The notes under the pieces are model-generated. The model made no database searches, had not been told where the DNA came from, and saw only the letters and a list, made by a program, of their open reading frames with translations. The position numbers and the translations under genes were made by a program. From Candidatus Falkowbacteria bacterium (GTDB lineage Bacteria > Patescibacteriota > Patescibacteriia > UBA11705 > JACRDX01), in assembly GCA_043798985.1 (NCBI GenBank), contig JAZDOE010000023.1, forward strand, positions 3,626 through 67,625: 64,000 bases of DNA, written 5' to 3'. Shown here piece after piece: positions 8,426 through 62,131 of the stretch (within the stretch, counting starts at the first letter, position 1; each line of letters starts with the position of its first letter).

Positions 8426-8469
8426 AGATAAAAAATTTTAAATTTCAAATTTTAAATTTTCAATGTTGG

Positions 8470-12602: not shown

Positions 12603-15600
12603 CTATTTAATGTCTAAATAACTCAACGCGCGCACAATTGCCCAATCTTTTGATGTCTTTGGCCATGCTTTATAAACGCTTCTGTATTTTGCCAATCCAA
12701 CTTTTTCCTTATTCAAATCTCTTTCTGTGATGCGCAAACGATAAGTCACCATATGCACAAACTTTTCTTCTGTCGCGTTTGTGAACTTAACAACTCGCTT
12801 AAAGATTTTCTTAAAATCTTTTGCGGCCTGCGTTTCTTTGCTGGCGACCTTTGCTGGTGTCGCATTTTGCGCGATCTTTGCCAAATTCTGCCAATCAGCG
12901 TCTGTCACTGGCAATTTGCCATAAATCTCTTTAAAGTCAGCCAATAATCCGCTGCGGTCTTTTATTGCCAATGCTTTTGTCGCGTCTGAACTGCCGTACG
13001 TCAAGAATGTCACCACTAGCCATTCAGAACTTTTCGCCGGCATTTTCCTCATTATCTTGCCGAATTCGGTAATTGACAAAATCTCTTTTGCCAAACTGCG
13101 GATTGAAGCAATTGGCAAAGTAGGCGCAGCATTGACAATTGTAATAACCGGCGCACCTGCTTTTTCAGTGATTGTAGTAGCTGGCGGCGTTATGGTCGTC
13201 ACTTTTATTGCTGGTTGCGCGAATTTTGCCACTGCTAACCAATCAGCGTCTGTCTTTGGCAATTTATTACTATTGGCTTTCTTAAATTTGACAACTAACG
13301 CGCTACGCTCTGCCATTGTCAGCGCCTTTGTCGCATCAGAACTGCCATACGTAAGAAATGTCACAACCAACCATTCAGCGCTACTTGCTGGCACTTTTTT
13401 CATTATCTTATTAAATTCAACAATAGACGCGGCTTCTTTTGCCAAATCTCGTATTGTTGCTGTTGGCAATGTTGGCGTCGCGTTAACAATCGTTTCCGCT
13501 ATCGGAGTTGTCACTACTGTTTTAGCGGCTTCGTCTGCTACTTTTTTCGTCGCTTCAACAGTCGTTAGTGTTATAAATGTTTTACCAACCCCTGCCCCAA
13601 CGTTTGACGCAGTATCCTTGCTCTTTACTTGATAATGATAAATAGTCGCTGGCAATAATCCTGTCAATTTTACAGAGTGAGAATAAGCATACGCGCCGGT
13701 TTTTTCTTCTTTACCATAACTGGACGTGCTTCCATACAACAACCATGACAATGATGACTCATTGGTTGTCCATGTGATTGTTGCTTCTGTGTCTTTTGCT
13801 GAAACAGCAATATTGCTTATAACTGGCGCGGTTGTATCCAACAAAGCTCCAGCGCCGCCACCTGGACTAGCCGGCGGAGCTGAAATCGTGATTGGAGGAC
13901 TTCCAATTCCAACGGTCGTAAAGTGAGTAATATAACCAGTGATTGTATTAGCGGCCGTGTCAATTACTTGATTGTCAAACGGAACAGGCGCGCCTAATGT
14001 TTCATCAAAATAAACCAATTTCAATGCGCTTTCTGTCGTCACACCAGCAGCTGTCATTTCCGCGTTAGTATAATGAAACACAACTTCCGCGCCATCACCG
14101 CCAAGTTGATTAATATCTCCATCTTCGCTGTCTTTGGCCGTAATATCAACAAGATTACCAACCATTGTGAATGAATCTGTTGTTGGCGCGTCAACCTCCT
14201 CTACAATAACGCTACCCGGATTTGAATCTCTGCCTAAAACAGCAGCTCCAAAATTCATTTCAACGCCAGTATTATCTGAATCATCCACTGTCCCGCCAAC
14301 AGACGGGGTCATTGTAATTGTATCTGCTTTTTTAATATCCGTGGCATCGGCTGTCAATGTCGCGTTCTTGCCTGCCTGATCTGCGCCAGCAACAACTATT
14401 GCTGAACTCATTGTTGTTGGTGCGTGCAGAGAAGCATCTGCTTTAACTGTCCAAGTTCCATCGCTTACTGGCAATGTATATGTTCCGTCTTTTTGTATTG
14501 CTGTTTTCACATATTTGCCATCGCTCGTTGAAGCAAAAACAATACCATTATCCGCTAAAGTTGTTCCATCACTTTTATAAATCGTTCCTGAAATTTCCGC
14601 TGTTTTTGCCTGCAAAGGATTATTCACAGCAACTCCTTCGCCCGTGAGATTAGCATCAAAGTCATAATCAAGATTAGCCGAAACTGTCACTTCTGCTTTA
14701 GCCGGCGTATCATAATCTTGCTGTTCAGCTTTAATCTTATACGTTCCAGCTTTTACGCTTAACGAATAATCTCCGTTACTGTCAGTTGTTGCTCGCTCTG
14801 TCAAACCTGTCGTAGTTTCTGTCACAATAATACCCGCGTTAGCGATCGCACTATTTAAAGCATCCAACACATTACCGCTCACCGTGTATAGCGTTTGTCC
14901 TGACAAATTAATCGTCACAGTTTGATTGCTTGACAAATCAACGTTAGAGGCTGGTGAAAAATCACCCAAACCATCCACAAAAACCAAAATCTTATACGTT
15001 CCAGACGGCAAACTCATTGTTTTATTAGCGCTCAAATCAACAATTGGCATGCCGCGGCGCGCTGTTCCTGTTGTACCTTTTGCTTCAACAAAACCGCGCA
15101 TAGAGCTTGTTCCGCCAGTAAATGCCAAGGTTAATGTTTTTACCTGTGTCGCGTCATAGCTAATATCTGAAGTGACGTTTTGAATTGTGACCGTGGCGCT
15201 TTGTCCGATTTCGCCATAATCTGGCGTCCAAATAGACACACGGTACGTTCCAGCGCCAACTTTAATTGAATACGCGCCGCTTGAATCTGTCATTTCATTT
15301 CTATGATAACCGCCAGACGGCCTGTCGTTTGTTGTGTCCCATGTTTCAACGCCAACCGGAATATTTGCTTGCGCGGTTCCGCCAAGCGTCACTGTGCCAG
15401 AAATTGTATAACAGGTAATTGATGCTGGCTGTATGTTCTGATTATCCTTGCTAGCATCTGTCACGAGCACTGTTTTAGTAATGACTCCGCAAGTATCAAT
15501 TCCAGAAGGCATATCAGCTGTAATTGTCCATGTTCCAGCGCCAACGCCTATAACGTAATTTCCATCTGTATCTGTGCTGGTATGCACCATCTGATAACTT

Positions 15601-18600
15601 GTGGCCTCTTTTGCCTGCACATGAGCATATTGCAACGCGCTTCCAGAACTATTGCTGATCTTACCAGAAATTGTATAATCTGGCCTGCCAATCCGCACAA
15701 TCAACGGCGCGGCAGTTGTCACCAAAGCGTTGTTAGCGCTGATATCAGCTGTACTATTATTATCTACTGTTCCCGCGTTATTATTTGCCACTGAAACAGT
15801 GCGCGAAGGAGCTTCTCCATAACCAGGCTTAAATACTCCTAAATCATAAACACCATTCATTGATATTTTTAAGACAAAGCTACCATCTGCTTTTGATTGA
15901 GTATGAGAGCCAGCTCCGCCAAAGCCCATTGGCTGATTTGCAAAAACTTCAGCGTTTGCCATTACATTATAAACCTTTGCGCCGGTTGAAAACCCTTGGC
16001 TGATTCCGGCCAGCAAAGTGACTGTTGTGCCGCTCATGCTTGATATTTTACCAGTGGCAGTATTTGTCCCATCATATAAAACAATGGTATCATTCGCCAA
16101 AAATCCACCTGCGCTTGTCAAGGATAGGGTAGTGGCATTTGCTGTATAATTAGCTGACAATGTTGTTTGCGCGCTTACCACGCGGCCAAGAATTTGTTTG
16201 TTGGCAGTATTAATAGTAAAACTCAATTCTGTAATCACGGCGCCAGTATCCATGCGTTTTATTACTGGCGTTCCACCAACTCCTGACACTTCAATATTTA
16301 CGCTCATCGGCGGCATCCAATCAGGCATTTGCGGTGGTCCCATTTTGGGACCCTTTGGCATAGCTGGATAAACACCTATCATATAACTACCATTGGCTGG
16401 CAAATAAAGCGTTGTGCTATTGTTAGTCACCGCGCCTGTTAATGTTTTGGTTTCTACGTTATATCCCGCTGGACCGCCAGCAGAAATATCAACATCTTCT
16501 CCGCTTGCGCTAAATGTTCCTGACACCTTAACATTCAAACTTGTTGAATTGCCAGCTCCATATTTTACAAATGTCAAAGCCTTAGTCAACGTGCTAGTTC
16601 CAGCGTTCCAATTTGCGCCAGATCCCGGTAAACACAATGGTTCAGGATTCATTTGCCCGCTATATTTGTTGTTCGCCCCCAATGTGATTGTTGGTTCAGT
16701 GAACAAATTGTAGCAACCATTTGGAAGATTAGACCAAGTCTGCGCGCCCGTTCCATTGGTAATTGTGACAGTAGCGTCCTGCGGGCCTGACATTGGCGAA
16801 CCCATCATTAAACTAAACGTACCATTACCCTCTGCGGCAGTAATATTCGCTGTAATGTTATTTGTACCAGCCGCAGCAGTGAAAAATGGCATTGATGTCT
16901 TAGATTCAACCAATGTCCCTGCCGCTTTATAAGACTTCATGTCAATGCTATATCCTTCTGTATTGAAATCTTTGGGAATCTTTGAATTAATTATTCCTTT
17001 AATTTCCAAGTGCAAGAAATCTGGGTCTCCGGTATTGCCAGCAACGCCGCCATCAAGAACGCTTAAATACAATGTGACAGTTTGGCCAGACACAGTGACA
17101 CCGTCATTTGCCGCGCCGCCCTTGGTCGCGGCGCTTGAGCCATCATCAGTCACCCCGCTTGTTTTTAACGCAACGGTGCTTGGACCCATCATGTTTAAAT
17201 CATTTTTATTAGGATTATATGGGTCAGGAATAACGCTTGAAATATCAAAACCTTGCGGAAAAGTAATTTTAATTGTCGCGCCATTATCTAAACGATTTGA
17301 AGTGCCGCCAGATGGAGCAATAGGGAAGTCAATAATGTATGTTGTCGTCGCGCCTGCCATTGAGTTCATCGGAAACACACCAGCTGCCATACCGCTTCCC
17401 TTGTCCATTGCCGTAAAACCGCCAAATCCAGTAGGTCCTGTCATCGTTGCTCCGCCAGCCATTGGCGCGCCCATCATGCCACCGCCGCCAGGACCGACAA
17501 ATCCTTGAGTTTTAGCGCTGCTCAAAACATTCCCGCTCGCTGTATCAACATCAGTATCCATCGGATTGCTTGATAGATCCTTAACATTGGCAACCACAAA
17601 GTTATATTTACCGCTTAGCGCAAGCCCTGAAATTTTAACGGTATTTACTTTATTATCCCAAGTAAAACTCGCGGCATTTGGAATTATATATGGAGTCGTA
17701 CCTTCCGCACCTTGCGTGATAGAATAATTTGCAGGATTTATCACGCTACTTGTCCAACGATTAGTATCAGTGGCGCTCGCCGCGTTCATTGCTTTATTAA
17801 AAGTAATCGCGCAGCTGTAATCATCGCAATTTGAAAATTCAACTCGCGGCTTATTAGTATCAACGGTGGTTGACATCGTAAATGTGCGCGTGGTGGTGAG
17901 GAAATCATTGCCAGCCAAATCATTGATGCCAGTTGCGCCGCCAATCAGTTGCACCGTGTAAGTAGCGCCTGCCATTAATCCAACTGTTGGATAAATGCGA
18001 ATGCTTTTTGCCATAGGATCAAATTCAACGGTGCTTGGAACATTGGTAGCGCCGGACATCAATTTGACCGTTGAACTATTAACAGTGGTGATGACCTCAT
18101 CCAAACCAATGTCTATAAAACCAATATTGCTGACATTTGTCGCGGCATTGTCTGGCCAGCTGCCAGTGATAGCTGGCGCAGAGCTGTCAGTACCAGTTCC
18201 TGTATCAAAATCTGAAACAAAGAATGCGGCGCTAGGATCATTCGGATTTCCAATTGTAATACCAGCGCTTGAACGCGCGGCATTCTTGACTTTTATACGA
18301 TAGTGAGTACTCGCGACTAAACCACCGGACACGACATCCATTGTCACTTGTTCTTTATCAGAGCTTAATGAAACACTGTCAATCAATGTTTGTGTCACAT
18401 TTGTCTCAACATTATTCGTCACGCTATATAATTCAAATGTTCCGCGATTAACAGAGCTGGAATCCATGCCCTCGCTAAAAGAAAGCACAATGTCGCTATT
18501 CTTTGAAATATTCCACGCGCCAGGCGCAGGGATAGCTCCAAGAATGTATGGCGGATTAATTGAGCCGCCAGTCCAGTTGCCAGTAGCTGTGTTATAGTTG

Positions 18601-21398
18601 GTAGACATGTCCAGATAGCCAGTATCAGTTTTCATGTTATTCCAGAATGTGGCGCCGCCTGTCATATAGCTATTTTCAGTTTGAGTAAACACAAAACCCG
18701 CTCCACCGCCAAAATCTTTCATATCACTTGCGCCTACTGTGAACATAAATTCATGACCACCGCCGATTCTGCTTCCAGAAATTGCATTGCCAGCAGTATC
18801 TTTTACTGCTGGCGTAATTTCAACAATGTACTGCGTTCCATTTGTCAAAAGCGCTTCTTGCTCAAGCACAATAACAGGCATTGTTGCTGATCCGCCAAAT
18901 GACCTTGTAATGCTATGAAATGTAACGCCCGAGCCAGTATCAAGCCCTATATTATATCCAGTCAAATTAACCATACTGCCACCTGACATTCTTTTGAATT
19001 TGATATTCGCGCTTGCCGCATCGCAGTTTGCACAAGTAGCTGTCGTTGAATCAATGGCCTTATCCAAACCAATCAATATCGGTCCTTTATCAATCACTAT
19101 ATCAGCTGGCGCGCCCATCATTCCCGCGCCCGGCGCGCTCCACATCACACCCGGCGCATCCAAATCACCGCCAAGTCCGGCACTGCCAGCTGTCAAGCAA
19201 GAAACCCAACCACTGGAAACAGGATTGTTAGAATTCACAGACACACCCCAAATTTGCCCATCAAGATAACCGCCGCTTGTGGTCTTTAAATTATAAACCC
19301 CATCTGAAACATTATTGATTGTAAATACGCCGCTATTATTACTGATCGCGCTAAAACCAGTTCCCTCTAAATAAACCGTAGCATTAGCAATTGGAGTAGA
19401 GCAGTCACTCTGATATACTGTGCCGGAAACGCTTCGTGAACCGCTGGAAGTTGAAACTGTAATATGGTATGGGCTGCTTTGCGCGGTAGCTATGCTGGTA
19501 GCGCTCGGGTTGAAACACGCAACGCTTGTAGCAGGCACTGAATCTGTCGCGTAAATATAATAATCTATCCCTGCTGATGTCACCGCAGACGCTGGAATTG
19601 TAAAAACAACGTCCATCATCATCTGTCCTGTCACACAAGTAGGGGATTCTGGCCAACTTGTATTTGACGCTTTATAACAAAGTTTTGTTGTTAGATTAGA
19701 AAACGCCTCTTGCATGTCATTAATTTTAGCTGGAATTTTCAATTCGTTGCTTACCGTTGAATTAATAATCGGCATGTGTATTATTGTTGGAGCAGTATTA
19801 ACACCGCCGCCACCAGGAGTTTCAGCTGTAGCCGCCAAATTTTGAGGATCAGCAGTGGTCCTAACAATAAAATCCCAACTATTTATATCACTATCATAGC
19901 CATTGCCGCCAATGACATTAGCGCCGCCAACATCCATTGTTGTCGCAGTAGCGCTAGCCAATGCTTTTCTTTCCGCGCTTTTGCCAGCAGTCATTGTGCC
20001 GATGAATGGGGATCCCTCATAAACTCGCGCATTCGCTCCAAGCCCAACCATATCTATCACTTCACCAAAAGCATTTAAAAAGAAAATTGTATCTCCTGCC
20101 GCTAAATCAACCCCGGTAAATGTCGCGTCAGCTATCATGTTAGCGCCATTAACATTTTGGTGATAATTGTTAGCTGTATTCGCCAAAAGATAATATTTGC
20201 CTGATGCTAAATTAACATTTCCCAGCGTTGCTAATGTCGTATAAACGCCACCAACAAACGCCTTTATCGTATAATTGTTCAAATTCATATTCCCCCTGGA
20301 ATATATTTCAATAAATTCATCAGTTGTGTTTGTGCCTGCCAATTTAACTTCTGAAATTACTAACGATGTTGAACTTAATGTTGGATATACATTAAAATTA
20401 CTGGAAACCGGCATTGGGTCTACCGCAGATTTTGGCGCGTTGCTTGGATCTGTTGTTATTTGTATCCAATCTTCTGTTGAAACAGAGATTCTCGCATCAG
20501 CATGCGCGTTCAAAACAAGCTTTGTAAGCTCTGTATTATCAAGCGCTGCTGAAACAATGGTCTCTGTGTCACTAGCATCCTTTGTATGTAATGTATATTT
20601 AACAGCACAGGTTTCCGCGCTCGCGCAATTGGTAGTCGCGCTAGACATGTTTTTATCAAACATGACTGTCAATTGTTTATAATTCGCATACACAAGCCTT
20701 GCAATATGCGGCGGCTGTATCCAACCGCCAGCGCCATCGCCCATGCTTGTCAACGCTCCCGTAGAAAACGCGGTAATTGATGGGGAAGTGCCAGACGTCA
20801 CAACTGTTCCGCCAGCTCCGGTCAAAAATGTCAGTCTGAAAGATTTACCAGCTGGCGGCTGGGCAGCCATTTTCATGTGAACAAAATAGTTATAGCCAGT
20901 CGCGTAACTTGTTGGCAATGCTTGATTTGTTATGTCTAATGTTGTGTCATACGTGCCATTTCCATTGTCAGTCCATGTTGGCTTATTTTCCCACGCGAGA
21001 ATAGTGTCAATGCTACCGCCCGGTTCAAAACCTCCATTGCTATTGTTATCTTTATAAACACACAAACCTTGGCTGTCATTAGCGCCGCCCGCGCCAGCAT
21101 CATTAAATGCAACAAGCATCGTGGCCGGCGTCGCGCCAGAAGTTCCAATGTCTTCAAACCTTACCTTAATGCTCTGCAATTGTTCACTCGCGCTCGCAGT
21201 TATTTTCAAACCAGCGACCACTTGCATCATGCCGCCAGAAACCATCCACGAAGTTGGAATTCTGTTTTCGGTCGCCACTGTCACTGCCGCGTTAGCTGGA
21301 AATAGGGGAGTCAAAATTCCCGCGATTCCGATTGTCCACGCGATTGTTGCCATTACAATAAAAACATTGAATGGCTTGTTTTTCGCAATCATTCTCAT
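12603..21398 (-). CDS. giant (2931 aa) secreted/cell-surface protein with repeated beta-sandwich domains
   Basis: N-terminal signal/TM; Thr/Gly/Ser/Ala-rich; several CarboxypepD_reg-like repeats (e.g. SGTVYQSDCSTPIANATVYLEGTGF...NNSGVFTI); FN3-like module; C-terminal 2x ~110-aa tandem repeat. Confidence 0.7.
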   Translation of the reverse strand: MRMIAKNKPFNVFIVMATIAWTIGIAGILTPLFPANAAVTVATENRIPTSWMVSGGMMQVVAGLKITASASEQLQSIKVRFEDIGTSGATPATMLVAFNDAGAGGANDSQGLCVYKDNNSNGGFEPGGSIDTILAWENKPTWTDNGNGTYDTTLDITNQALPTSYATGYNYFVHMKMAAQPPAGKSFRLTFLTGAGGTVVTSGTSPSITAFSTGALTSMGDGAGGWIQPPHIARLVYANYKQLTVMFDKNMSSATTNCASAETCAVKYTLHTKDASDTETIVSAALDNTELTKLVLNAHADARISVSTEDWIQITTDPSNAPKSAVDPMPVSSNFNVYPTLSSTSLVISEVKLAGTNTTDEFIEIYSRGNMNLNNYTIKAFVGGVYTTLATLGNVNLASGKYYLLANTANNYHQNVNGANMIADATFTGVDLAAGDTIFFLNAFGEVIDMVGLGANARVYEGSPFIGTMTAGKSAERKALASATATTMDVGGANVIGGNGYDSDINSWDFIVRTTADPQNLAATAETPGGGGVNTAPTIIHMPIINSTVSNELKIPAKINDMQEAFSNLTTKLCYKASNTSWPESPTCVTGQMMMDVVFTIPASAVTSAGIDYYIYATDSVPATSVACFNPSATSIATAQSSPYHITVSTSSGSRSVSGTVYQSDCSTPIANATVYLEGTGFSAISNNSGVFTINNVSDGVYNLKTTSGGYLDGQIWGVSVNSNNPVSSGWVSCLTAGSAGLGGDLDAPGVMWSAPGAGMMGAPADIVIDKGPILIGLDKAIDSTTATCANCDAASANIKFKRMSGGSMVNLTGYNIGLDTGSGVTFHSITRSFGGSATMPVIVLEQEALLTNGTQYIVEITPAVKDTAGNAISGSRIGGGHEFMFTVGASDMKDFGGGAGFVFTQTENSYMTGGATFWNNMKTDTGYLDMSTNYNTATGNWTGGSINPPYILGAIPAPGAWNISKNSDIVLSFSEGMDSSSVNRGTFELYSVTNNVETNVTQTLIDSVSLSSDKEQVTMDVVSGGLVASTHYRIKVKNAARSSAGITIGNPNDPSAAFFVSDFDTGTGTDSSAPAITGSWPDNAATNVSNIGFIDIGLDEVITTVNSSTVKLMSGATNVPSTVEFDPMAKSIRIYPTVGLMAGATYTVQLIGGATGINDLAGNDFLTTTRTFTMSTTVDTNKPRVEFSNCDDYSCAITFNKAMNAASATDTNRWTSSVINPANYSITQGAEGTTPYIIPNAASFTWDNKVNTVKISGLALSGKYNFVVANVKDLSSNPMDTDVDTASGNVLSSAKTQGFVGPGGGGMMGAPMAGGATMTGPTGFGGFTAMDKGSGMAAGVFPMNSMAGATTTYIIDFPIAPSGGTSNRLDNGATIKITFPQGFDISSVIPDPYNPNKNDLNMMGPSTVALKTSGVTDDGSSAATKGGAANDGVTVSGQTVTLYLSVLDGGVAGNTGDPDFLHLEIKGIINSKIPKDFNTEGYSIDMKSYKAAGTLVESKTSMPFFTAAAGTNNITANITAAEGNGTFSLMMGSPMSGPQDATVTITNGTGAQTWSNLPNGCYNLFTEPTITLGANNKYSGQMNPEPLCLPGSGANWNAGTSTLTKALTFVKYGAGNSTSLNVKVSGTFSASGEDVDISAGGPAGYNVETKTLTGAVTNNSTTLYLPANGSYMIGVYPAMPKGPKMGPPQMPDWMPPMSVNIEVSGVGGTPVIKRMDTGAVITELSFTINTANKQILGRVVSAQTTLSANYTANATTLSLTSAGGFLANDTIVLYDGTNTATGKISSMSGTTVTLLAGISQGFSTGAKVYNVMANAEVFANQPMGFGGAGSHTQSKADGSFVLKISMNGVYDLGVFKPGYGEAPSRTVSVANNNAGTVDNNSTADISANNALVTTAAPLIVRIGRPDYTISGKISNSSGSALQYAHVQAKEATSYQMVHTSTDTDGNYVIGVGAGTWTITADMPSGIDTCGVITKTVLVTDASKDNQNIQPASITCYTISGTVTLGGTAQANIPVGVETWDTTNDRPSGGYHRNEMTDSSGAYSIKVGAGTYRVSIWTPDYGEIGQSATVTIQNVTSDISYDATQVKTLTLAFTGGTSSMRGFVEAKGTTGTARRGMPIVDLSANKTMSLPSGTYKILVFVDGLGDFSPASNVDLSSNQTVTINLSGQTLYTVSGNVLDALNSAIANAGIIVTETTTGLTERATTDSNGDYSLSVKAGTYKIKAEQQDYDTPAKAEVTVSANLDYDFDANLTGEGVAVNNPLQAKTAEISGTIYKSDGTTLADNGIVFASTSDGKYVKTAIQKDGTYTLPVSDGTWTVKADASLHAPTTMSSAIVVAGADQAGKNATLTADATDIKKADTITMTPSVGGTVDDSDNTGVEMNFGAAVLGRDSNPGSVIVEEVDAPTTDSFTMVGNLVDITAKDSEDGDINQLGGDGAEVVFHYTNAEMTAAGVTTESALKLVYFDETLGAPVPFDNQVIDTAANTITGYITHFTTVGIGSPPITISAPPASPGGGAGALLDTTAPVISNIAVSAKDTEATITWTTNESSLSWLLYGSTSSYGKEEKTGAYAYSHSVKLTGLLPATIYHYQVKSKDTASNVGAGVGKTFITLTTVEATKKVADEAAKTVVTTPIAETIVNATPTLPTATIRDLAKEAASIVEFNKIMKKVPASSAEWLVVTFLTYGSSDATKALTMAERSALVVKFKKANSNKLPKTDADWLAVAKFAQPAIKVTTITPPATTITEKAGAPVITIVNAAPTLPIASIRSLAKEILSITEFGKIMRKMPAKSSEWLVVTFLTYGSSDATKALAIKDRSGLLADFKEIYGKLPVTDADWQNLAKIAQNATPAKVASKETQAAKDFKKIFKRVVKFTNATEEKFVHMVTYRLRITERDLNKEKVGLAKYRSVYKAWPKTSKDWAIVRALSYLDIK
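12890..13560. repeat. tandem ~330-bp duplication inside the 3' end of the giant gene
   Basis: two near-identical DNA blocks (ccaatcagcgtctgtc...gccaaa... repeated) encoding repeated TPTLP..IR.LAKE..SI.EF.KIM.K.PA.S.EWLVVTFLTYGSSDATKAL units. Confidence 0.6.
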
Positions 21399-21752: not shown

Positions 21753-22730
21753 TTATGCTGATAATGGATGAAATTTTTTGTGCGCGTCTTCTGCGTAACG
21801 ATCAGACACATTCACATAGCGCGTTGTGGTTTGCAACGATTCATGCCCCAGCAAAATCTGAATGGCAGCCGGGTTTGCGCCTTGTTCAGCCAGTAGCGTG
21901 GCAAACGCATGCCGCAAAGAATGCGCGGAAATCGGCGTGTTAATGCCCAAAAGCTCGCGATAGTGTTTTATTCGCTCTTGCAAATAATTTGTTGAAACTT
22001 TTTTGTTCTTTTTAGCGCTGTTTTTACCACGCAAAGGTAAAAATAAGTATTCGCCACCGATTTCTCGTTTTGTCAAATAATCATTCAAATACTTTTGGCT
22101 ACGTTTAGTTAAATAAACAAACCGCTCTTTGCGGCCTTTACCCTTGATAAAAATGCGGCCGGTTTTATCAATTTGCGCGATTTTAAGGTTTAATAATTCA
22201 GAAATGCGCATTCCCGTGGAGAAAAGCGTTTCCAGCATTGCGCGGTTGCGGCTCGCGACAATTTCGTTTTGCTCAAATTGATTGGGAAACTCAATCAATT
22301 TGACGATATCTTCAAATTCCGCGAGCCGCAGATGCTTTTTGTCTGTTTTTGCAAGTTTAATCATATCCGGCGCAACAGGGCAATCATAATCCATTTCAAT
22401 CAAATACTTAAAATAAGAACGTAGCGCTGAAAGCATGCGATTCGTTGTATAACTGCTCAAATGTTTTTCCGTGTCATTTCCACCAGCTGTCTTGCGATCA
22501 TGAGAAGCGAGATAGGCTTTATAATTCAAAATTGTTTTTTTATCAATCTTTTCAAACGATGCCTCAACTTCCTGCAAAAAATTTAAAAAAGTTTTTAAAT
22601 CGCATTCATAATTATAAATTGTTTCAGCAGAATAATTATTTGTTTGCATGTTCAATAAAAAATCATCAAGGCAGGGAAGGGTTAGCTTGTAGCTTGTAGG
22701 TTGTAGGTCGGATTTTTTTTGTCCAGCCAT
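21753..22730 (-). CDS. tyrosine site-specific recombinase, XerC/XerD-like
   Basis: C-terminal HSLRHAFATLLAEQGANPAAIQILLGHESLQTTTRYVNV (R-H-R-Y catalytic set), core-binding N domain. Confidence 0.8.
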   Translation of the reverse strand: MAGQKKSDLQPTSYKLTLPCLDDFLLNMQTNNYSAETIYNYECDLKTFLNFLQEVEASFEKIDKKTILNYKAYLASHDRKTAGGNDTEKHLSSYTTNRMLSALRSYFKYLIEMDYDCPVAPDMIKLAKTDKKHLRLAEFEDIVKLIEFPNQFEQNEIVASRNRAMLETLFSTGMRISELLNLKIAQIDKTGRIFIKGKGRKERFVYLTKRSQKYLNDYLTKREIGGEYLFLPLRGKNSAKKNKKVSTNYLQERIKHYRELLGINTPISAHSLRHAFATLLAEQGANPAAIQILLGHESLQTTTRYVNVSDRYAEDAHKKFHPLSA

Positions 22731-22828: not shown

Positions 22829-22856
22829 GTAGAGACGAAACATGTTCCGTCTCTAC
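22829..22856. repeat. REP-like palindrome GTAGAGACG-N10-CGTCTCTAC
   Basis: gtagagacgaaacatgttccgtctctac; same arms as copies at 40522, 59536, 60186. Confidence 0.6.
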
Positions 22857-22954
22857 AAGAATAACGCGCCACAGGGCAAAATTGAAGGTCATTTTTTGGC
22901 TAAGTTTAGCGACAAATCCGACGTGCGCTTTTTATTCAAAAATAAGTTCAAAAA

Positions 22955-23078
22955 TACGAATTCCGAATATCGAAATACGAAACAAATTCCAAATCAGACT
23001 ACGCCTGCCGGCGGGCAGGAATCTGAATGTTTCAATATTGGAAAATTAGAATTTCGTGCTTGTTTCGGATTTAGAATT
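22955..23078. mobile_element. MITE-like hairpin repeat, copy A
   Basis: ~85% identical to 47709-47833; terminal inverted repeats AAATMCGAAACAA / TTGTTTCGKATTT; central GC palindrome cctgccggcgggcagg. Confidence 0.55.
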
Positions 23079-33291: not shown

Positions 33292-34532
33292 GTAGCATCA
33301 AGCTCCTTGATTTTTACCAGCCGAGCCTCCTTCTCATGCCGACATTTTACCTCGCAACTATCCTGTTGTAAAGTTTTTCTACTGACAATAATCCGCACAG
33401 GAATGCCGATCAAATCCGCGTCAACCAACTTTTCGCCGATTGACTTATCATCCCTTTCGTCAAACAAGATGCTATCCCCGCCGTTGGAAAGATTAAACTT
33501 TTCATAAATCTTTTTTGCGGTTGCCACAACTTCCTTGTCGTTTGTCAGGGCAATCAAATGCGCTGAAAATGGCGCGACATTTTTTGGCCAAATCATTCCT
33601 GCGTCATCGTGAAAAAGCTCAACAATCGTGCCCATAATTCGCGACGGCCCAATTCCATAAGCAGCCATTTCAATTGGTTGTTCATCGCCATTCTCATCCA
33701 CCCACTTAAAATTGAATGCGCTCGTGAACTTGGTTCTTTGTTTGAAAATATTACCGACCTCAATCGCTTTTCGCGCAACCAATTTTTTATTGCCGCATTC
33801 TGGGCATGTGTTTTGCTCGTCAATAATTTCTTTGTTCACTGCCACGCGGCATTTTTCGCACACATGAACAATGTCTTCGCCAGCTTCGCACAAAGTTTGA
33901 AATTCATGAGAATATTTGCTAAAAGTTCCGCCTGACGCGAATGTGAGCAATGTGACGTCGCCGATTCCAAGCCGATTGTAAATTTTAAAATACGCATCTT
34001 TCACTATTTCATAATAATTATTCAAATCCTTTTCAGTCGCGTGGAACGAGTACAAATCTTTCATGTTAAATTCTCTGCCGCGCAATAAACCAGACTTTGC
34101 GCGCGCCTCATTTCTGAATTTATTCTGGATTTGATAAACCGCGAGCGGCAAATCTTTGTATGACAAAACAAATTTTTGCACCAATGGCGTGACGATTTCT
34201 TCATGCGTTGGATTCAAAAACATCTTCGCGTCGCCTTGTCCCATTGTGCTGAAAAGCACGTCTGCCATTGTTTTGTCGCGGCCGGTTTGTTTGTAATTTT
34301 CTTCCTGCGTCAATGTTGGCATTAAAATTTCCTGGCCACCAATCGCGTTCATTTCTTCGCGAATAATATTTTGTATGCGCGTTAAAACTCGCAAGCCCAA
34401 TGGTAAATAATTATAAACGCCTGCCATTTGTTTTGAAATAAACCCCGCGCGAATCAGCAGCTGCGCGTTCACGCTGGTTTCGTCTTTTGGAATTTGTTTT
34501 ATTGTTTTTGTAAAAAGCTTAGACTGCAACAT
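33273..34532 (-). CDS. proS: prolyl-tRNA synthetase, short archaeal/eukaryotic-like type lacking the insertion editing domain
   Basis: class II motifs (FRNEARAKSGLLRGREF, GIGPSR), internal Cys4 zinc knuckle CEKC...CPEC; 419 aa. Confidence 0.8.
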   Translation of the reverse strand: MLQSKLFTKTIKQIPKDETSVNAQLLIRAGFISKQMAGVYNYLPLGLRVLTRIQNIIREEMNAIGGQEILMPTLTQEENYKQTGRDKTMADVLFSTMGQGDAKMFLNPTHEEIVTPLVQKFVLSYKDLPLAVYQIQNKFRNEARAKSGLLRGREFNMKDLYSFHATEKDLNNYYEIVKDAYFKIYNRLGIGDVTLLTFASGGTFSKYSHEFQTLCEAGEDIVHVCEKCRVAVNKEIIDEQNTCPECGNKKLVARKAIEVGNIFKQRTKFTSAFNFKWVDENGDEQPIEMAAYGIGPSRIMGTIVELFHDDAGMIWPKNVAPFSAHLIALTNDKEVVATAKKIYEKFNLSNGGDSILFDERDDKSIGEKLVDADLIGIPVRIIVSRKTLQQDSCEVKCRHEKEARLVKIKELDATCFKNF

Positions 34533-34651
34533 AAAAAAATTTTGAATTTTGAATTTTTAATTTTAAATCAATGTTGAATGTATAAATGTTTGAATGTTTC
34601 AAAATTCAGATTTAAAAATTCATTAAAAATTAGAAATTTGAAATTCAAAAA

Positions 34652-35011
34652 TTAATTACGCTTCCCCTCTCGGGGCATGGCTTTGCCATCTAACCAAAAA
34701 TCAATCAATATCACTGCCACGATTAGCAACAACAAAGTAAAAAGATTAAAGACCCGCAATCCCTGTAAAATCAATGGAATAATAAAAAGCGCTGCCAATA
34801 AAATAGCGCGGCGAATTATCATTTTATTATTTGTAGAAATCCGCAACGCGATAGTGGCAAACCCACTGACCAGCGCCAACAACAATAAAACATGAAAAAC
34901 AAAAAACGCCCAAAGTTTGCCCGGCGCTACAGTGCTAATGAAAATAAACCAGCTTGCCCAAACAATAATCGTCGCCATTGTTATGGCAACTTTGTATTTT
35001 TGTAAATTCAT
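34652..35011 (-). CDS. small polytopic membrane protein, hypothetical
   Basis: 119 aa, 3-4 hydrophobic helices. Confidence 0.35.
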   Translation of the reverse strand: MNLQKYKVAITMATIIVWASWFIFISTVAPGKLWAFFVFHVLLLLALVSGFATIALRISTNNKMIIRRAILLAALFIIPLILQGLRVFNLFTLLLLIVAVILIDFWLDGKAMPREGKRN

Positions 35012-39593: not shown

Positions 39594-39630
39594 AATCGCA
39601 TAAATGTTCTTCAACAACCGGAGGGGTGTC

Positions 39631-40392
39631 ATGGACAAGAAGGCGTTCAAAGTCGCGGTCTCGTGTTTCATCGGTGCTGGAATCGGCGCGCTGGTCGCGC
39701 TGGAAATGAACCAGTGGTTCTGGTGGGTGGGATTGCTCGTCGGCGGGTTCGTCGGCTACCTGTCGTACGAATGGCGAACGGTTCTGCACGCAATTCCCGC
39801 GGCATTCAAGGCAGCTGAACGTGCGGTGTTCAACCGTCCAAAATACTTTTGGACAGCGATTGGATTGAGCATTATTGGCATCGTGGAATACTCTGCGATA
39901 TTTGGATCGCTAATGGGTTTCATAGCTCCAAATACTTCAACGTACATCTCCGTCTGGATTTGTACCACCTGCTTGTTCGCGATAATATTTTCATTCACGT
40001 ACTTTCACGATGAGATGCAGAATGAGCTCCGCAAACTCCTTGTGGCTGGACATCTGCGGCGCACGGTAACAATCGTGATCTTGCCCATTGGAATCTCGTG
40101 GCTGTTGTGGAGGTTCATCATCAACACGCCGCGGATGGTTTGCGCGATCGGGCGAGGCATCGTTCTTATCGCAAAGTTCATCAAGCGATTCGGATGGGAG
40201 ATGTTCATCAGAATCCATTCCGAGATTCGCTTGCTCTGCGGCATTGACGCGATGATCGGCGCGGCAATCGGCTTTTTCAGCGGTTCGGTGCTAATCGGCG
40301 CTTTCGCCGGAGCAGCGTTCGGCGCGCTCAACTATGCGGTCATCACCGTCCGGTGGCTGATCCCAGCCGGACACATCCAACGGACAACGTGA
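39631..40392 (+). CDS. GC-rich polytopic membrane protein of unknown function (likely horizontally acquired)
   Basis: 254 aa from MDKKAFK; ~6 hydrophobic helices; codon usage dominated by G/C-ending codons unlike neighbours; strong SD; start at 39604 in ORF track rejected (lies 4 nt after -10). Confidence 0.6.
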   Translation: MDKKAFKVAVSCFIGAGIGALVALEMNQWFWWVGLLVGGFVGYLSYEWRTVLHAIPAAFKAAERAVFNRPKYFWTAIGLSIIGIVEYSAIFGSLMGFIAPNTSTYISVWICTTCLFAIIFSFTYFHDEMQNELRKLLVAGHLRRTVTIVILPIGISWLLWRFIINTPRMVCAIGRGIVLIAKFIKRFGWEMFIRIHSEIRLLCGIDAMIGAAIGFFSGSVLIGAFAGAAFGALNYAVITVRWLIPAGHIQRTT

Positions 40393-40452: not shown

Positions 40453-40521
40453 ATTTTCACGGGTGCCACATATCCACACCCCTCAATTTTTCATAAAATT
40501 TTCAAAATGGTATTTATAATG

Positions 40522-40549
40522 GTAGAGACGAGATATATCTCGTCTCTAC
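40522..40549. repeat. REP palindrome, perfect 28-mer
   Basis: gtagagacgagatat|atctcgtctctac, preceded by TATAAT. Confidence 0.65.
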
Positions 40550-40607: not shown

Positions 40608-40655
40608 GTAAAGACGAGATACCCGCCTGCCGTCGGGCAGGTATCTCGTCTTTAC
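40608..40655. repeat. 48-nt compound palindrome (REP variant GTAAAGACGAGATAC...GTATCTCGTCTTTAC with inner cctgcc-gtcg-ggcagg hairpin)
   Basis: outer 15-bp perfect arms; inner GC hairpin matches the MITE core palindrome cctgccggcgggcagg. Confidence 0.55.
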
Positions 40656-47694: not shown

Positions 47695-47708
47695 AGCCGT
47701 TAAAATTC

Positions 47709-47833
47709 GAAATCCGAAATTCTAAATCCGAAACAAATTCCAAACCTGACCACGCCTGCCGGCGGGCAGGAATCCGAATGTTTCAAACATTGAAAAATTA
47801 GTATTTCGGGCTTGTTTCGTATTTCGATATTCG
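47709..47833. mobile_element. MITE-like hairpin repeat, copy B
   Basis: ~85% identical to 22955-23078 including cctgccggcgggcagg core and TIRs; ends ~10 nt before pyrH ATG. Confidence 0.55.
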
Positions 47834-53915: not shown

Positions 53916-53986
53916 AACATTATAAAATTTGGAATTTCTAATTTTAAATTTTTAATCAATTTTAAAATCTGAATTTTTAAACATTT

Positions 53987-58796: not shown

Positions 58797-58803
58797 ATCA
58801 TTT

Positions 58804-58830
58804 GTACAGACGAGATATATCTCGTCTCTC
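58804..58830. repeat. REP-like palindrome, slightly degenerate ends
   Basis: gtacagacgagatat|atctcgtctctc; core identical to 40522 copy. Confidence 0.5.
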
Positions 58831-58862
58831 TCATATTAACAAACCCGCGCAAAAAATCTATA

Positions 58863-58890
58863 TTGACAAAATATAAAAAAAGATTAAGAT
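58863..58890 (+). promoter_or_regulatory. sigma70-like promoter of second GC-rich cassette gene
   Basis: TTGACA-N16-TAAGAT, GGAGG SD 6 nt before ATG 58920. Confidence 0.4.
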
Positions 58891-58919
58891 AAAGGGGCAC
58901 GTAACCATGGAGGTCGCAA

Positions 58920-59408
58920 ATGGATCTGTTAGAACTCGTACCGCCCTCCAACGTGCAAACCACGTTCGGAGAAATCCCAAAAGGCAGGCTCGCCATCGTG
59001 GCAGTTCTCGTCCTTGCATCAGGCCTAATTTGGGGAGCGATCATGTTGGTTCCGTCGGTGAATGCGTTTGCCGTAGCTCTGTCCCAGACCGATGACGGCG
59101 CAACAGGTACACTCGCAAAAATCGCCATTGTAGTACTTTGCGCGATTCCAATCGTCGCGATATTCCACAGTTGGCGACTATACAGAACCATCGTCACAAA
59201 CAAAATCGTTCCGCTTGTGTATCTCAATGTTGTAAACATTGAGCGCGATATGATTCACGTAAAATCGTACTGTGGACGAACGCTCGCTGTTCCGCGGTCG
59301 CAAGTGCAGGATAAGCGCGCCGCATGGGATCACTTGGGCTACTTAGAAATCAGCGGCACGACCAACAAACCCAAAGCAGAGCTGCGAGATTTCTACGCAG
59401 AACGATGA
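58920..59408 (+). CDS. GC-rich small membrane protein, possibly bacterial PH-domain (YdbS/bPH_2-like)
   Basis: 162 aa; two TM helices then ~75-aa soluble domain; GC-rich codon usage unlike flanks. Confidence 0.45.
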   Translation: MDLLELVPPSNVQTTFGEIPKGRLAIVAVLVLASGLIWGAIMLVPSVNAFAVALSQTDDGATGTLAKIAIVVLCAIPIVAIFHSWRLYRTIVTNKIVPLVYLNVVNIERDMIHVKSYCGRTLAVPRSQVQDKRAAWDHLGYLEISGTTNKPKAELRDFYAER

Positions 59409-59535
59409 ACGCGCAACAAACCTTGTCAAAAATTTTGACAAGGTTATTTTTTTATTATCTGCGCGCCACCTAGAATTTCAAGGGTGTCACCTATTCACAA
59501 CCCTGCATTTCATATACAAAAATGCGCATTATATT

Positions 59536-59563
59536 GTAGAGACGGGGCATGCCCCGTCTCTAC
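59536..59563. repeat. REP palindrome, perfect 28-mer, immediately 5' of RAYT
   Basis: gtagagacggggcat|gccccgtctctac; preceded by TATATT. Confidence 0.7.
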
Positions 59564-59572
59564 CCGAACAAT

Positions 59573-60112
59573 ATGCGCAATGAATTATTATTTCAAAATC
59601 AATTTAGAATTCCTTCTACACGGCTCCAATATTGGAACTACGCCCAAGACGGGTGGTATTTTGTTACAATTTGCACGCACAAACGAGAATGCTTTTTGGG
59701 GGAAATAAATAACTACGAACCGCAACTATCCCCCGTGGGACAAATCGCTGAAAAATGTTGGTTAGAAATTCCGCAACATTTTCCAAATGTTGAATTAGAG
59801 ACATTCGTCATCATGCCAAATCACATACATGGAATAATTACAATTAATTGCACGGAGCAGCAAACAAACAAAAATAATATTGGACAAAATTTACCGCTTC
59901 CACAATCATTGTCTGCGGTAATTGGTTCTTTCAAATCCGCCGTTTCAAAAATTATCAACAGAACACATCCAAAAATTCCCTTTCAATGGCAAACAAGATT
60001 TTACGACCGTATCATTCGCAATCGCGAATCAATGTACAAAATCAGCCAATACATTCTAAACAACCCTATAAAATGGGAATTGGACAGGAATAATCCAAAA
60101 AATGTTTATTAA
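59573..60112 (+). CDS. REP-associated tyrosine transposase (RAYT; IS200/IS605-like Y1 HUH enzyme)
   Basis: YFVTICT..., HUH motif MPNHIHGII, C-terminal WQTRFYDRIIRN...YILNNPIKW catalytic-Tyr block; single copy flanked by REPs; start moved from 59549 because that ATG lies inside the REP. Confidence 0.8.
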   Translation: MRNELLFQNQFRIPSTRLQYWNYAQDGWYFVTICTHKRECFLGEINNYEPQLSPVGQIAEKCWLEIPQHFPNVELETFVIMPNHIHGIITINCTEQQTNKNNIGQNLPLPQSLSAVIGSFKSAVSKIINRTHPKIPFQWQTRFYDRIIRNRESMYKISQYILNNPIKWELDRNNPKNVY

Positions 60113-60185
60113 TCTAACATTGAGGGCAACAATTATACACAACCCTAAATTTGGACAATATAATTAAAAATTTTATAAATTAAAT

Positions 60186-60213
60186 GTAGAGACGTAGCAT
60201 GCTACGTCTCTAC
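60186..60213. repeat. REP palindrome, perfect 28-mer, 3' of RAYT
   Basis: gtagagacgtagcat|gctacgtctctac. Confidence 0.7.
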
Positions 60214-60256
60214 ATAATATACCCCCCAAAATTCAATGTGTTATAAAACGCAAAAA

Positions 60257-62131
60257 TTATTCCAAAACAGCTTTGACGCGGCGGACGCCGGCCGAGCTGG
60301 CCTCCTCCTTTACAATTTTAAAATGCCCCAGCTCGGCCGTATTATTTGCATGCGGTCCGCCGCAGATCTCTTTAGAAAAAACCTGCCCCGAGCATTGCGA
60401 GGGGCCACCAATAAAATATACTTTTACTTTGTCTCCATATTTATTTTCAAAAATTCCGGTCGCGCCAATTTTTTTCGCCTCGTCCAAAGACAGCTCCTCG
60501 CATTTAACGTCCAACTTTTTCGCGATTTGTTCGTTAACAATTTCCTCAACTTTTTTAATTTGCTCTGCTGTCATTTTTTCTTCATGCGAAAAATCAAACC
60601 GCAAACGTTCTGCCGTGATATTTGATCCGCGCTGCTCAACATGCTCACCCAAAACTTGGCGCATTGCTTCTAACATCAAATGCGCGGCAGTGTGCAATCG
60701 CTTGGTTTGTTCCGACGAATCAGCCAACCCGCCCTTGAACATTCCAGCTGACGCTGTTTTGGAAAGTTCCTGATGTTTTTTAAATTCCTCGTTAAATTCT
60801 TTTTCGTCAACTTCCGCGCCGATTTCTCGCGCAAATTCTTGCGTCATTTCAAACGGAAAACCATAAGTTGAAAAAAGTATAAACGCGTCTTTGCCAGAAA
60901 TCGTTTTCCCAATGGCAAATCGCTGAAATTCTTTAATCCCCTTTTCCAAAGTCTTCGCAAATCTATCCTCTTCCTTATTAAGCTGGTCAACAATAAAGCC
61001 GCGATTTTTTTTCAATTCCGGATAAATTTTTTGCATCTGTTTGATAACCACTTCTGCGATTTGCGCTGTAAAATTGTCATTGATTCCCAATTGCTTGCCA
61101 TACCGAATGGCGCGGCGAATCAGGCGACGCAAAACATAACCCTGCAAAACATTTGACGGCTCAATCGCCTTTTCGTCGCCTAAAATAAATGTGGCCGCGC
61201 GCAAATGATCCGCGATTATTCTGAATGCCTTTTTGTTTTCCGCGTATTTTTTGTCTGATAATTTTTCAATTTTTTCAAAAATTTCCTGAAATTCTTCAAT
61301 ATCAAAGACCTCTTTTTCGCCATTCAATATCGCCGTTGTTCTTTCAAGCCCCATGCCAGTATCAACATTTTTTTGTTTCAACGGTGCCAGCGAACCATCT
61401 TGTTGGCGATCATATTCCATAAAAACATCATTCCAAACTTCAACAAACCTACCCTCTTTTACAAGTTGCTCGTGCGTTTTGCCATTTTCAAAACCGCGCT
61501 CCGGATAAACATCGTAAAACATTTCCGAACACGGACCGCACGGGCCGCCAGTTGCCAATCCCCACCAGTTATCATCATTGCCAAGCGCGAAAATCCGCTG
61601 GGCATTGTTGCTCCACGTTCCGTCCAACGAAACGTCAGCGTCAATTTTAACGTTGCCAAATTGTTCCTGCCAAATTTTTATTGATTCTTCGTCCAATCCA
61701 ACATTGTCTTTTGCATCACCGCGAAAAACCGTAATATACAAACGTTTTGGATCAAGCTTGAGCCCTTTTTTGTTTGTTAAAAATTCAAAACTCATTGCAA
61801 TCGCCTCCTCCTTAAAATAACCTGCCCCGATCCTGTCCTCAGCGTCGGGGTCGCCGAGCGACCAGTTTCCCAACATTTCAAAAAAAGTTAAATGCCTGTT
61901 ATCGCCAACATCATCAATATCGCCAGTGCGAATACACTTTTGCGCGTCAGTCAAGCGCTGACCAGCCGGATATTTTTCGCCCAACAAATACGGAACAAGC
62001 GGGTGCATTCCAGCCGTTGTAAATAAAACGCTCGGGTCGTTTTCTGGGATTAAAGAAGCAGAAGCGATTATTGCATGCTTCTTTTGTTTAAAAAATTTCA
62101 AATACTTTTCGCGCAATTGTGCAGTTGTCAT
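60257..62131 (-). CDS. alaS: alanyl-tRNA synthetase, short form lacking C-Ala domain
   Basis: N-terminal class II catalytic core (FTTAGMHPLVPY), editing-domain HTAAHLMLEAMRQVLG and CGGPH motifs; 624 aa. Confidence 0.85.
   Translation of the reverse strand: MTTAQLREKYLKFFKQKKHAIIASASLIPENDPSVLFTTAGMHPLVPYLLGEKYPAGQRLTDAQKCIRTGDIDDVGDNRHLTFFEMLGNWSLGDPDAEDRIGAGYFKEEAIAMSFEFLTNKKGLKLDPKRLYITVFRGDAKDNVGLDEESIKIWQEQFGNVKIDADVSLDGTWSNNAQRIFALGNDDNWWGLATGGPCGPCSEMFYDVYPERGFENGKTHEQLVKEGRFVEVWNDVFMEYDRQQDGSLAPLKQKNVDTGMGLERTTAILNGEKEVFDIEEFQEIFEKIEKLSDKKYAENKKAFRIIADHLRAATFILGDEKAIEPSNVLQGYVLRRLIRRAIRYGKQLGINDNFTAQIAEVVIKQMQKIYPELKKNRGFIVDQLNKEEDRFAKTLEKGIKEFQRFAIGKTISGKDAFILFSTYGFPFEMTQEFAREIGAEVDEKEFNEEFKKHQELSKTASAGMFKGGLADSSEQTKRLHTAAHLMLEAMRQVLGEHVEQRGSNITAERLRFDFSHEEKMTAEQIKKVEEIVNEQIAKKLDVKCEELSLDEAKKIGATGIFENKYGDKVKVYFIGGPSQCSGQVFSKEICGGPHANNTAELGHFKIVKEEASSAGVRRVKAVLE

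Follow-up and report, generated by a model that had tools for sequence, protein, structure and literature searches.

A probable REPtron with a subclass 2.4 tyrosine transposase gene in Candidatus Falkowbacteria

The stretch of Candidatus Falkowbacteria DNA analyzed here (64,000 nt of contig JAZDOE010000023.1, assembly GCA_043798985.1; hereafter, the window) very probably carries a REPtron at 59482–60213. By this we mean a gene for a tyrosine transposase associated with repetitive extragenic palindromes, or REPs (RAYT, also called TnpAREP), of subclass 2.4 (Group 4), with a cognate 28-nt double-foot REP on each side. The reading of the gene as a RAYT rests on profile, fold and motif matches, on the same layout in relatives and on the dispersed intergenic copies of the palindrome. 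The element is a member of a kind described in 2017–2018, down to the sequence of its REP, and the new part is its host in the candidate phyla radiation (CPR; Patescibacteria). Its components are, from left to right:

59482–59504, plus strand: left companion motif (GGGTGTCACCTATTCACAACCCT), at the left edge of REPtron homology, with the left REP following 32 nt downstream
59536–59563, no strand: left REP, a perfect 28-nt double-foot palindrome (GTAGAGACG GGGCATGCCC CGTCTCTAC) ending 9 nt before the RAYT ATG
59573–60112, plus strand: RAYT/TnpAREP gene (179 aa), a predicted HUH-Y1 nuclease-transposase of single-stranded DNA, subclass 2.4/Group 4
60124–60146, plus strand: degenerate companion motif on the right (GGGCAACAATTATACACAACCCT), oriented as the left one, with the right REP following 40 nt downstream
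60186–60213, no strand: right REP, a perfect 28-nt palindrome (centre TAGCATGCTA) starting 73 nt past the RAYT stop

The 179-aa protein is 100% identical to a ‘transposase’ annotated by NCBI in a Candidatus Falkowbacteria metagenome-assembled genome (MAG). Its translation contains the motifs YFVT, MPNHIHGII, WQTRFYDRIIRN and YILNNPIKW, which a preliminary description made from the letters of the window had read as a RAYT/IS200 signature; profile, fold and motif matches bear out the reading as a RAYT. The key residues are N83-H84-I85-H86, W139-Q140 and Y160-I-L-N-N164-P165. The protein passes the Pfam Y1_Tnp model (PF01797; 30.1 bits for a gathering score of 23) and its catalytic tyrosine aligns with that of a known enzyme, two checks that the description had named. 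The best NCBIfam model by far is REP_Tyr_transpos (NF047646, 62.6 bits); the IS200 model (NF033573) gives 13.9 bits, far under its cutoff of 55. Furthermore, a profile built from 29 homologues has a sole significant match in the PDB, the E. coli TnpAREP (4ER8, E 1.3e-6), in which H59-M60-H61 correspond to H84-I85-H86 and the catalytic Y115 to Y160. The HUH and tyrosine residues are invariant across the 29 homologues. The AlphaFold2 model (pLDDT 86) also retrieves 4ER8 as the top PDB match in Foldseek (E 2e-7), followed by the TnpA proteins of IS608 and ISDra2.

The assignment to subclass 2.4 follows the classification of the Y1 family by Quentin, Siguier, Chandler and Fichant (BMC Genomics 19:475), in which subclass 2.4 equals Group 4 of Bertels (Quentin et al., 2018). 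The subclass is defined by the motifs NH[IFV]H, WQ and YIxNNP, a variable insertion between the HuH motif and the tyrosine, and long double-foot REPs (Quentin et al., 2018). The NHIH, WQ and YILNNP of the window protein fit these signatures, and Y160-I-L-N-N-P165 fits the broader class 2 signature Y---NP (Quentin et al., 2018). The protein has 179 residues for a subclass median of 194. Its variable insertion is the loop of residues 92–112 between HUH and Tyr, the sole disordered, low-confidence part of the model, and holds no REP. In E. coli, W94, Q95 and R104 have been tied to recognition of the GTAG guide (Quentin et al., 2018). The equivalent residues, W139, Q140 and R149, are invariant in the homologue alignment (A1); E100 and H101 are replaced by D145 and R146, and both substitutions occur in other subclasses too.

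The palindromes agree with the same subclass. The two that flank the gene lie exactly where the preliminary description had placed them, and the left REP folds as a 12-bp hairpin in single-stranded DNA. The pattern GTAGAGACG-N6-14-CGTCTCTAC occurs four times in the window (59536, 60186, 22829 and 40522) and in none of 100 shuffled sequences. All four perfect copies have the double foot, 5' GT[AG]G and 3' C[TC]AC. The remaining copies are:

22829–22856, no strand: dispersed intergenic REP, centre AAACATGTTC with one A/C mismatch, without a clear companion motif
40461–40549, plus strand: solo module, with a companion motif (40461–40483), a 38-nt spacer and a perfect REP (40522–40549, centre AGATATATCT)
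40608–40655, no strand: REP variant in which the foot changes compensate each other (GTAAAGACG...CGTCTTTAC); its centre, again AGATA/TATCT, is interrupted by a second, GC-rich palindrome nested inside it (CGCCTGCCGTCGGGCAGG)
58804–58832, no strand: degenerate REP (GTACAGACG AGATATATCT CGTCTCTCTC) between the mutS start and a 162-aa open reading frame (ORF)
9762–9791, plus strand: possible REP relic, with an intact left foot (GTAGAGACG) followed by CAACATG and a degenerate right arm

Coding sequence takes up 92% of the window, yet all four perfect REPs and two degenerate ones are fully intergenic; 28-nt windows that are intergenic make up 6.6% of the total (p ~2e-5 for the four perfect copies). 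The extragenic bias that the preliminary description proposed to look for is thus present in the 64 kb. Also confirmed are the GTAG feet and a conserved stem around a variable, self-complementary centre, with some corrections. The centre AAACATGTTC has its one mismatch, and the ggcatgcc listed as a centre is part of GGGCATGCCC. The third palindrome, at 58804, is REP-like as claimed; it is not a perfect palindrome, since both feet are broken and only 58808–58827 forms a perfect inverted repeat. Its centre is the same as that of the copy at 40522, and the whole degenerate REP is unchanged in the closely related locus L125. The centre AGATATATCT is in fact common to three copies in the window (40522, 40608 and 58804), which points to copying or replacement of whole REPs and not to stepwise mutation. 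The solo module sits between the terminators of two convergent genes, 3' of a gene of outlying GC content (39604–40392). The candidate relic at 9762 lies inside a 16-aa N-terminal extension of gltX (window 9740–9791), upstream of its Pfam domain, where the foot is read as RRD. Here a coding region may have taken up a REP; a lone 9-mer could also have arisen by chance.

Published REPs of subclass 2.4 have GT[AG]G as one foot and C[TC]AC as the other, and it is common for them to be inserted into the reading frame of the gene (Quentin et al., 2018). In that study, Table S1 gives GTAGAGACGCACGGCCGTGCGTCTCTAC for Chloroflexus aggregans and GTAGAGACGTTGCATGCAACGTCTCTAC for Cyanothece (Quentin et al., 2018), and the foot GTAGAGACG of the 28-nt GTAG...CTAC palindromes in the window is that of both. 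The low number of REP copies in the window is a further likeness: Group 4 has low-abundance flanking repeats, is rare in Proteobacteria and spans 17 classes (Bertels et al., 2017). The preliminary description had called REP/RAYT systems mainly proteobacterial and this one perhaps unreported. Apart from the CPR host, neither part is supported: the subclass is known mainly from Cyanobacteria, Bacteroidetes, Chlorobia and Chloroflexi, and the exact REP, GTAGAGACG...CGTCTCTAC, is in Table S1.

When one genome of each species was scanned, at least 120 loci proved to carry the palindrome (L001–L120; 128 copies); they belong to Bacteroidota, Cyanobacteria, Chloroflexi, Acidobacteria, Planctomycetes, Ignavibacteria, Spirochaetes and others. 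The N10 centres of the 128 copies comprise 73 distinct sequences, and 88 copies are fully self-complementary there (4.2 expected). Complementarity is 90–97% in the outer three pairs and 91% and 84% in the two central ones, and the commonest cores are CATG, TGCA, AATT and GGCC. A hairpin loop does not require such symmetry through the centre. As observations apart, a Dysgonamonadaceae MAG (L013) has a RAYT flanked on each side by a tandem REP pair, one of them decayed, and in a Paludibacteraceae MAG (L071:1440–1700, reverse strand) a REP marks the precise point where one array of short tandem repeats meets another, different one.

A protein search returned 2,256 homologues of the RAYT, some of them named RayT by JGI and several from Patescibacteria. 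Among the closest 120, the HUH motif is NHIH, NHVH or NHFH in 94 and NHLH in a further 20, and YIxxNP is present in 103. The palindrome can be read as a peptide in 69 of the 120 (for example, CRDVACNVST from tGTAGAGACGttgcatgcaaCGTCTCTAC). The REP-encoded peptide lies between HuH and Y in 56 of them, and a DNA check in the Patescibacteria locus L225 agrees. With the T that is preferred before the in-frame REP and the A preferred behind it, the unit comes to 30 nt, or ten codons. In-frame REPs in many homologues thus match the published subclass, from which the window gene differs in having no internal REP.

A flanking layout of this kind is seen in the window and in five relatives (L121, L123/L124, L126, L180 and L225). 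The closest ones (L121, L123/L124, L126 and L180; 57–66% identity) have a palindrome on each side of the RAYT gene; the more distant Patescibacteria loci L224 and L225 have one REP within the gene and another immediately upstream. A REP at the position of the left REP is also present in L121, L123, L126, L180 and L225. In the window the neighbors are mutL, mutS, the 162-aa ORF and, next to the RAYT gene, alaS. The RAYT gene also adjoins alaS in L126 (L126:1–1279, matching window 59506–60731), where alaS is 89.6% identical in DNA and the RAYT 76% in DNA and 63–66% in protein. Both REP centres in L126 are AGATATATCT, in place of the GGGCATGCCC and TAGCATGCTA of the window, and they are still perfectly symmetric. 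The REPtrons of the remaining relatives lie in unrelated gene neighborhoods. L125 is 93% identical to the window and shares with it mutS, the degenerate REP and the 162-aa gene with the terminator of that gene; its sequence departs from that of the window at position 59453, some 30 nt short of the left companion motif, and the REPtron is absent. Thus, the REPtron is polymorphic for presence or absence between close relatives, and one REP centre has taken the place of another where the locus is orthologous.

The clade adds a companion motif to each REP. A conserved block with the consensus cacGGGTGnCACttatCCACAACCCTacATT precedes every REPtron-associated REP in the window and in L121, L123, L126 and L180, its CACAACCC core ending 32–40 nt upstream of the palindrome, and a T-TAT-A box lies near the REP. 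Left and right of the RAYT gene the block points the same way, and it recurs at the solo copy (40461–40549). It was not found at the 128 palindromes of other phyla or in the rest of the window. A metagenome scan for CACAACCCT-N25-45-GTAGAGACG returned 97 stretches, in which only L180 (and one doubtful locus) held a true module pair and the rest were chance matches. Because the block has only a weak stem of 4–5 bp, a stable hairpin was ruled out. Promoter-like hexamers overlap it, and it may be a promoter reading across the REP. Homology with the REPtrons of L121 and L123 starts at 59475–59482 and ends at 60214–60218, which gives a conserved unit of roughly 740 nt, bounded by the left companion motif and the far end of the right REP.

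The proposed mechanism is borrowed from better-known enzymes. By analogy with the E. coli TnpAREP and with IS608 and ISDra2, the RAYT would bind the REP hairpin in single-stranded DNA such as the lagging-strand template. The conserved stretch with W139, Q140, D145, R146 and R149 would read the GTAG foot, a role in which its E. coli counterpart is implicated. H84, H86 and N164 would hold a metal ion, and Y160 is predicted to cut and rejoin the strand through a 5'-phosphotyrosine. If the analogy is correct, REPs would be copied, moved or replaced at intergenic sites across the genome. That the protein is active as an enzyme, which strand it would cut and where, and whether the host gains from it are matters of inference.

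The comparison with the E. coli system (REP/BIME, with bacterial interspersed mosaic elements; subclass 2.2/Group 2) shows how far the likeness goes. The fold (4ER8), the HUH triad, the catalytic tyrosine, the W-Q...R stretch and the GTAG-footed hairpin are shared. However, the proteins are only about 20% identical, NHIH stands in place of DHLH, and the metal ligand H123 is not conserved. Furthermore, E. coli REPs are single-footed, bulged, species-specific and present in hundreds of copies, whereas those described here are perfect palindromes with a foot at both ends, and the foot is common across phyla. A double-foot REP also resembles two inverted half-REPs fused into a minimal REPIN (REP doublet forming a hairpin), a form reportedly described by Bertels and Rainey in 2011, but it has no spacer. 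The companion GGGTGYCAC loosely recalls the GGGGWSAS motif of the TIRYT/TIRtron elements (Di Nocera et al., 2013); the motif is direct here and not inverted, and we take this for a resemblance only.

Several points weigh against the REPtron reading. The REP_Tyr_transpos score, 62.6 bits, is below the NCBIfam equivalog cutoff of 80, and all counts of REPs and RAYT genes cover 64 kb of one MAG contig. By their companion motifs the flanking modules are direct and not inverted, which differs from classical REPtrons. Finally, a RAYT gene was present within the fetched stretch (up to 8 kb) at only 6 of the 120 palindrome loci listed; this is expected for dispersed REPs and does not itself prove a link.

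The alternative that survives best is that the unit of roughly 740 nt, which runs from a companion motif and REP through the RAYT gene to the second companion motif and REP, mobilizes itself as an autonomous insertion sequence (IS) like those of IS200/IS605, and is not a domesticated, stationary REPtron. The solo modules would then be derivatives akin to miniature inverted-repeat transposable elements or solo long terminal repeats. We consider this possible though unlikely. Like IS608 and ISDra2, the unit encodes a Y1 HUH protein and has a hairpin at each end, the two oriented alike on one strand; it carries the same module directly oriented at both ends, as in the left and right ends of IS608. 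It has sharp homology edges (59475–59482 and 60214–60218), lies in different gene neighborhoods in L121, L123, L180 and the window, and is absent from the 93%-identical L125. The patchy taxonomic distribution of subclass 2.4 is also consistent with horizontal transfer (Quentin et al., 2018). However, the tyrosine motif is YIxNNP and not the Y[IV]ENQ of IS200, a tnpB partner is absent (the RAYT neighbors are the 162-aa ORFan and alaS), and the window shows a single copy of the RAYT gene in its 64 kb and no sign of multiple identical copies. The RAYT–alaS synteny is kept in L126 although the RAYT is far more diverged than alaS, which fits long residence at the locus, and we found no pair of empty and filled sites showing a clean insertion. 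Outright membership of subclass 1.1 (IS200/IS605 insertion sequences) was rejected on the IS200 profile score (13.9, below 55), the YILNNP motif and the one copy in the window.

A second proposal concerns what moves rather than what the gene is, and extends the REPtron reading. In this CPR clade the mobile or repeated unit could be the oriented module of about 90 nt instead of the bare palindrome, with the symmetry of the centres and the wholesale exchange of REPs reflecting the copying of one arm from the other, or the replacement of a resident REP, over stepwise compensatory mutation. The module consists of the companion motif GGGTGyCAC-N5-CACAaCCCT, a spacer rich in AT that holds a TATAAT-like box, and the REP; it is present in direct orientation at both REPtron ends and also as the solo copy. 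We hold the joint proposal to be speculative and on balance rather improbable. If it were true, a subclass 2.4 RAYT would have asymmetric ends like those of IS608, with boundaries that can be mapped.

Alternatively, the palindromes could be mainly host cis-elements, either RNA hairpins that stabilize or end transcripts or sites for dimeric DNA-binding proteins, with the RAYT gene a passenger beside two of them. Copies do lie downstream of genes and beside terminators, and -35/-10-like boxes stand just upstream of the REP in the module. The 84% complementarity of the two central bases would be needed by a two-fold-symmetric duplex site and not by a hairpin. However, the T-run is missing after most copies, and a terminator-like score was obtained on one strand of one copy only. 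The palindrome accompanies this RAYT subclass across phyla and lies inside the RAYT frame in 56 of the 120 closest homologues. An Rfam scan of the whole window matched no family at the palindromes. Since a host role and RAYT-driven spread can coexist, the strict form of this explanation, in which the RAYT gene is only a passenger, seems to us highly unlikely. The narrower reading as intrinsic terminators was ruled out because most copies are not followed by a T-run.

We also examined the GC-rich neighbor of the REPtron, which the preliminary description had presented, with a second such gene, as cargo of the REP system:

58920–59408, plus strand: 162-aa GC-outlier ORFan with two hydrophobic helices, a neighbor that is not shown to be part of the element

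Its GC content (0.513) and GC at third codon positions (GC3; 0.552) compare with 0.408 ± 0.034 and 0.411 ± 0.057 for the 51 ORFs of the window. The GC richness, the TTGACA promoter and the GGAGG noted beforehand proved correct: a promoter-like site (TTGACA-16-TAAGAT) lies at 58863–58890, GGAGG precedes the ATG, and a terminator follows at 59419–59445. The protein has one homologue only among 5.8 billion proteins, no match in Pfam and nothing useful in NCBIfam, and its AlphaFold model (mean pLDDT 52.5) is too poor for a fold search; the putative PH-like tail named in the preliminary description thus drew no Pfam hit. The second gene (39604–40392, 262 aa) has a GC3 of 0.69, and the two are the only strong GC outliers of the 51 ORFs. 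Both lie directly upstream of a companion-plus-REP module, on the minority strand, with their own promoter, Shine-Dalgarno sequence and terminator, and the 162-aa gene has the degenerate REP upstream as well. These features would suit genes carried or captured by the REP/RAYT system. However, L125 keeps the 162-aa gene, the degenerate REP and the terminator and has unrelated sequence where the REPtron would begin. The 262-aa gene has no upstream REP, and its product falls in a family of hypothetical proteins from Patescibacteria. The two GC-rich proteins are not related to each other; kinship was ruled out by BLASTP (E 0.56). REP accumulation downstream of genes, between ORFs that converge or run the same way, is also documented, and the sample is two genes. 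The cargo claim therefore does not hold up well, and we give it little credence. We regard the presence of GC-rich genes beside REP modules as co-location in permissive intergenic spots, with a functional link not supported.

Two further readings were set aside. Integron attC cassettes were rejected: the sole tyrosine recombinase in the window is an XerC/D-like gene beside an unrelated copy, and the palindrome does not appear to be like attC core sites. Each arm holds CGTCTC, the Esp3I/BsmBI site, so a restriction-site artefact was considered, and nothing was in its favor.

With regard to novelty, we found no paper describing RAYT/REP systems in CPR/Patescibacteria, a phylum absent from the complete-genome surveys, where the non-IS200 (RAYT-like) subclasses occur mostly in large genomes. 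A full-text literature search for the palindrome strings returned primer sequences only. The preliminary suggestion that the CPR occurrence was unreported stands for the literature; it does not stand for the databases, whose annotations already point there through many Patescibacteria homologues, some of the family being named RayT by JGI. The find reveals no new type of system. It extends a documented RAYT/REP subclass to streamlined CPR genomes of roughly the 1-Mb class, and the oriented companion module, the symmetry through the REP centre and the putative replacement of REPs at a syntenic site are the only candidates for novelty. The CPR loci, with their sharp homology edges, presence/absence polymorphism and swapped centres, could be convenient for working out how RAYTs move or replace REPs.

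Other features of the window were recorded beside the REPs. The XerC/D-like gene (21753–22730) has Phage_integrase and SAM-like N domains and lies about 100 nt from the REP at 22829. A second repeat family has two 95-nt copies (22951–23045 and 47702–47796; 85% identical), built on the palindrome CCTGCCGGCGGGCAGG with inverted AT-rich flanks; a third core (40626–40641) is nested in the loop of the REP variant at 40608–40655. AT-rich intergenic repeats of the type AATTTTGAATTTTTAATTTTAAAT, direct and inverted, are found at 8429–8464, 34532–34658 and 53921–53985, and a 2,931-aa minus-strand ORF (12603–21398) has internal direct repeats at about 12891–13397. The sole Rfam match in the window is a ribosomal protein L10 leader (RF00557; 46834–46965, minus strand), just over the gathering score.

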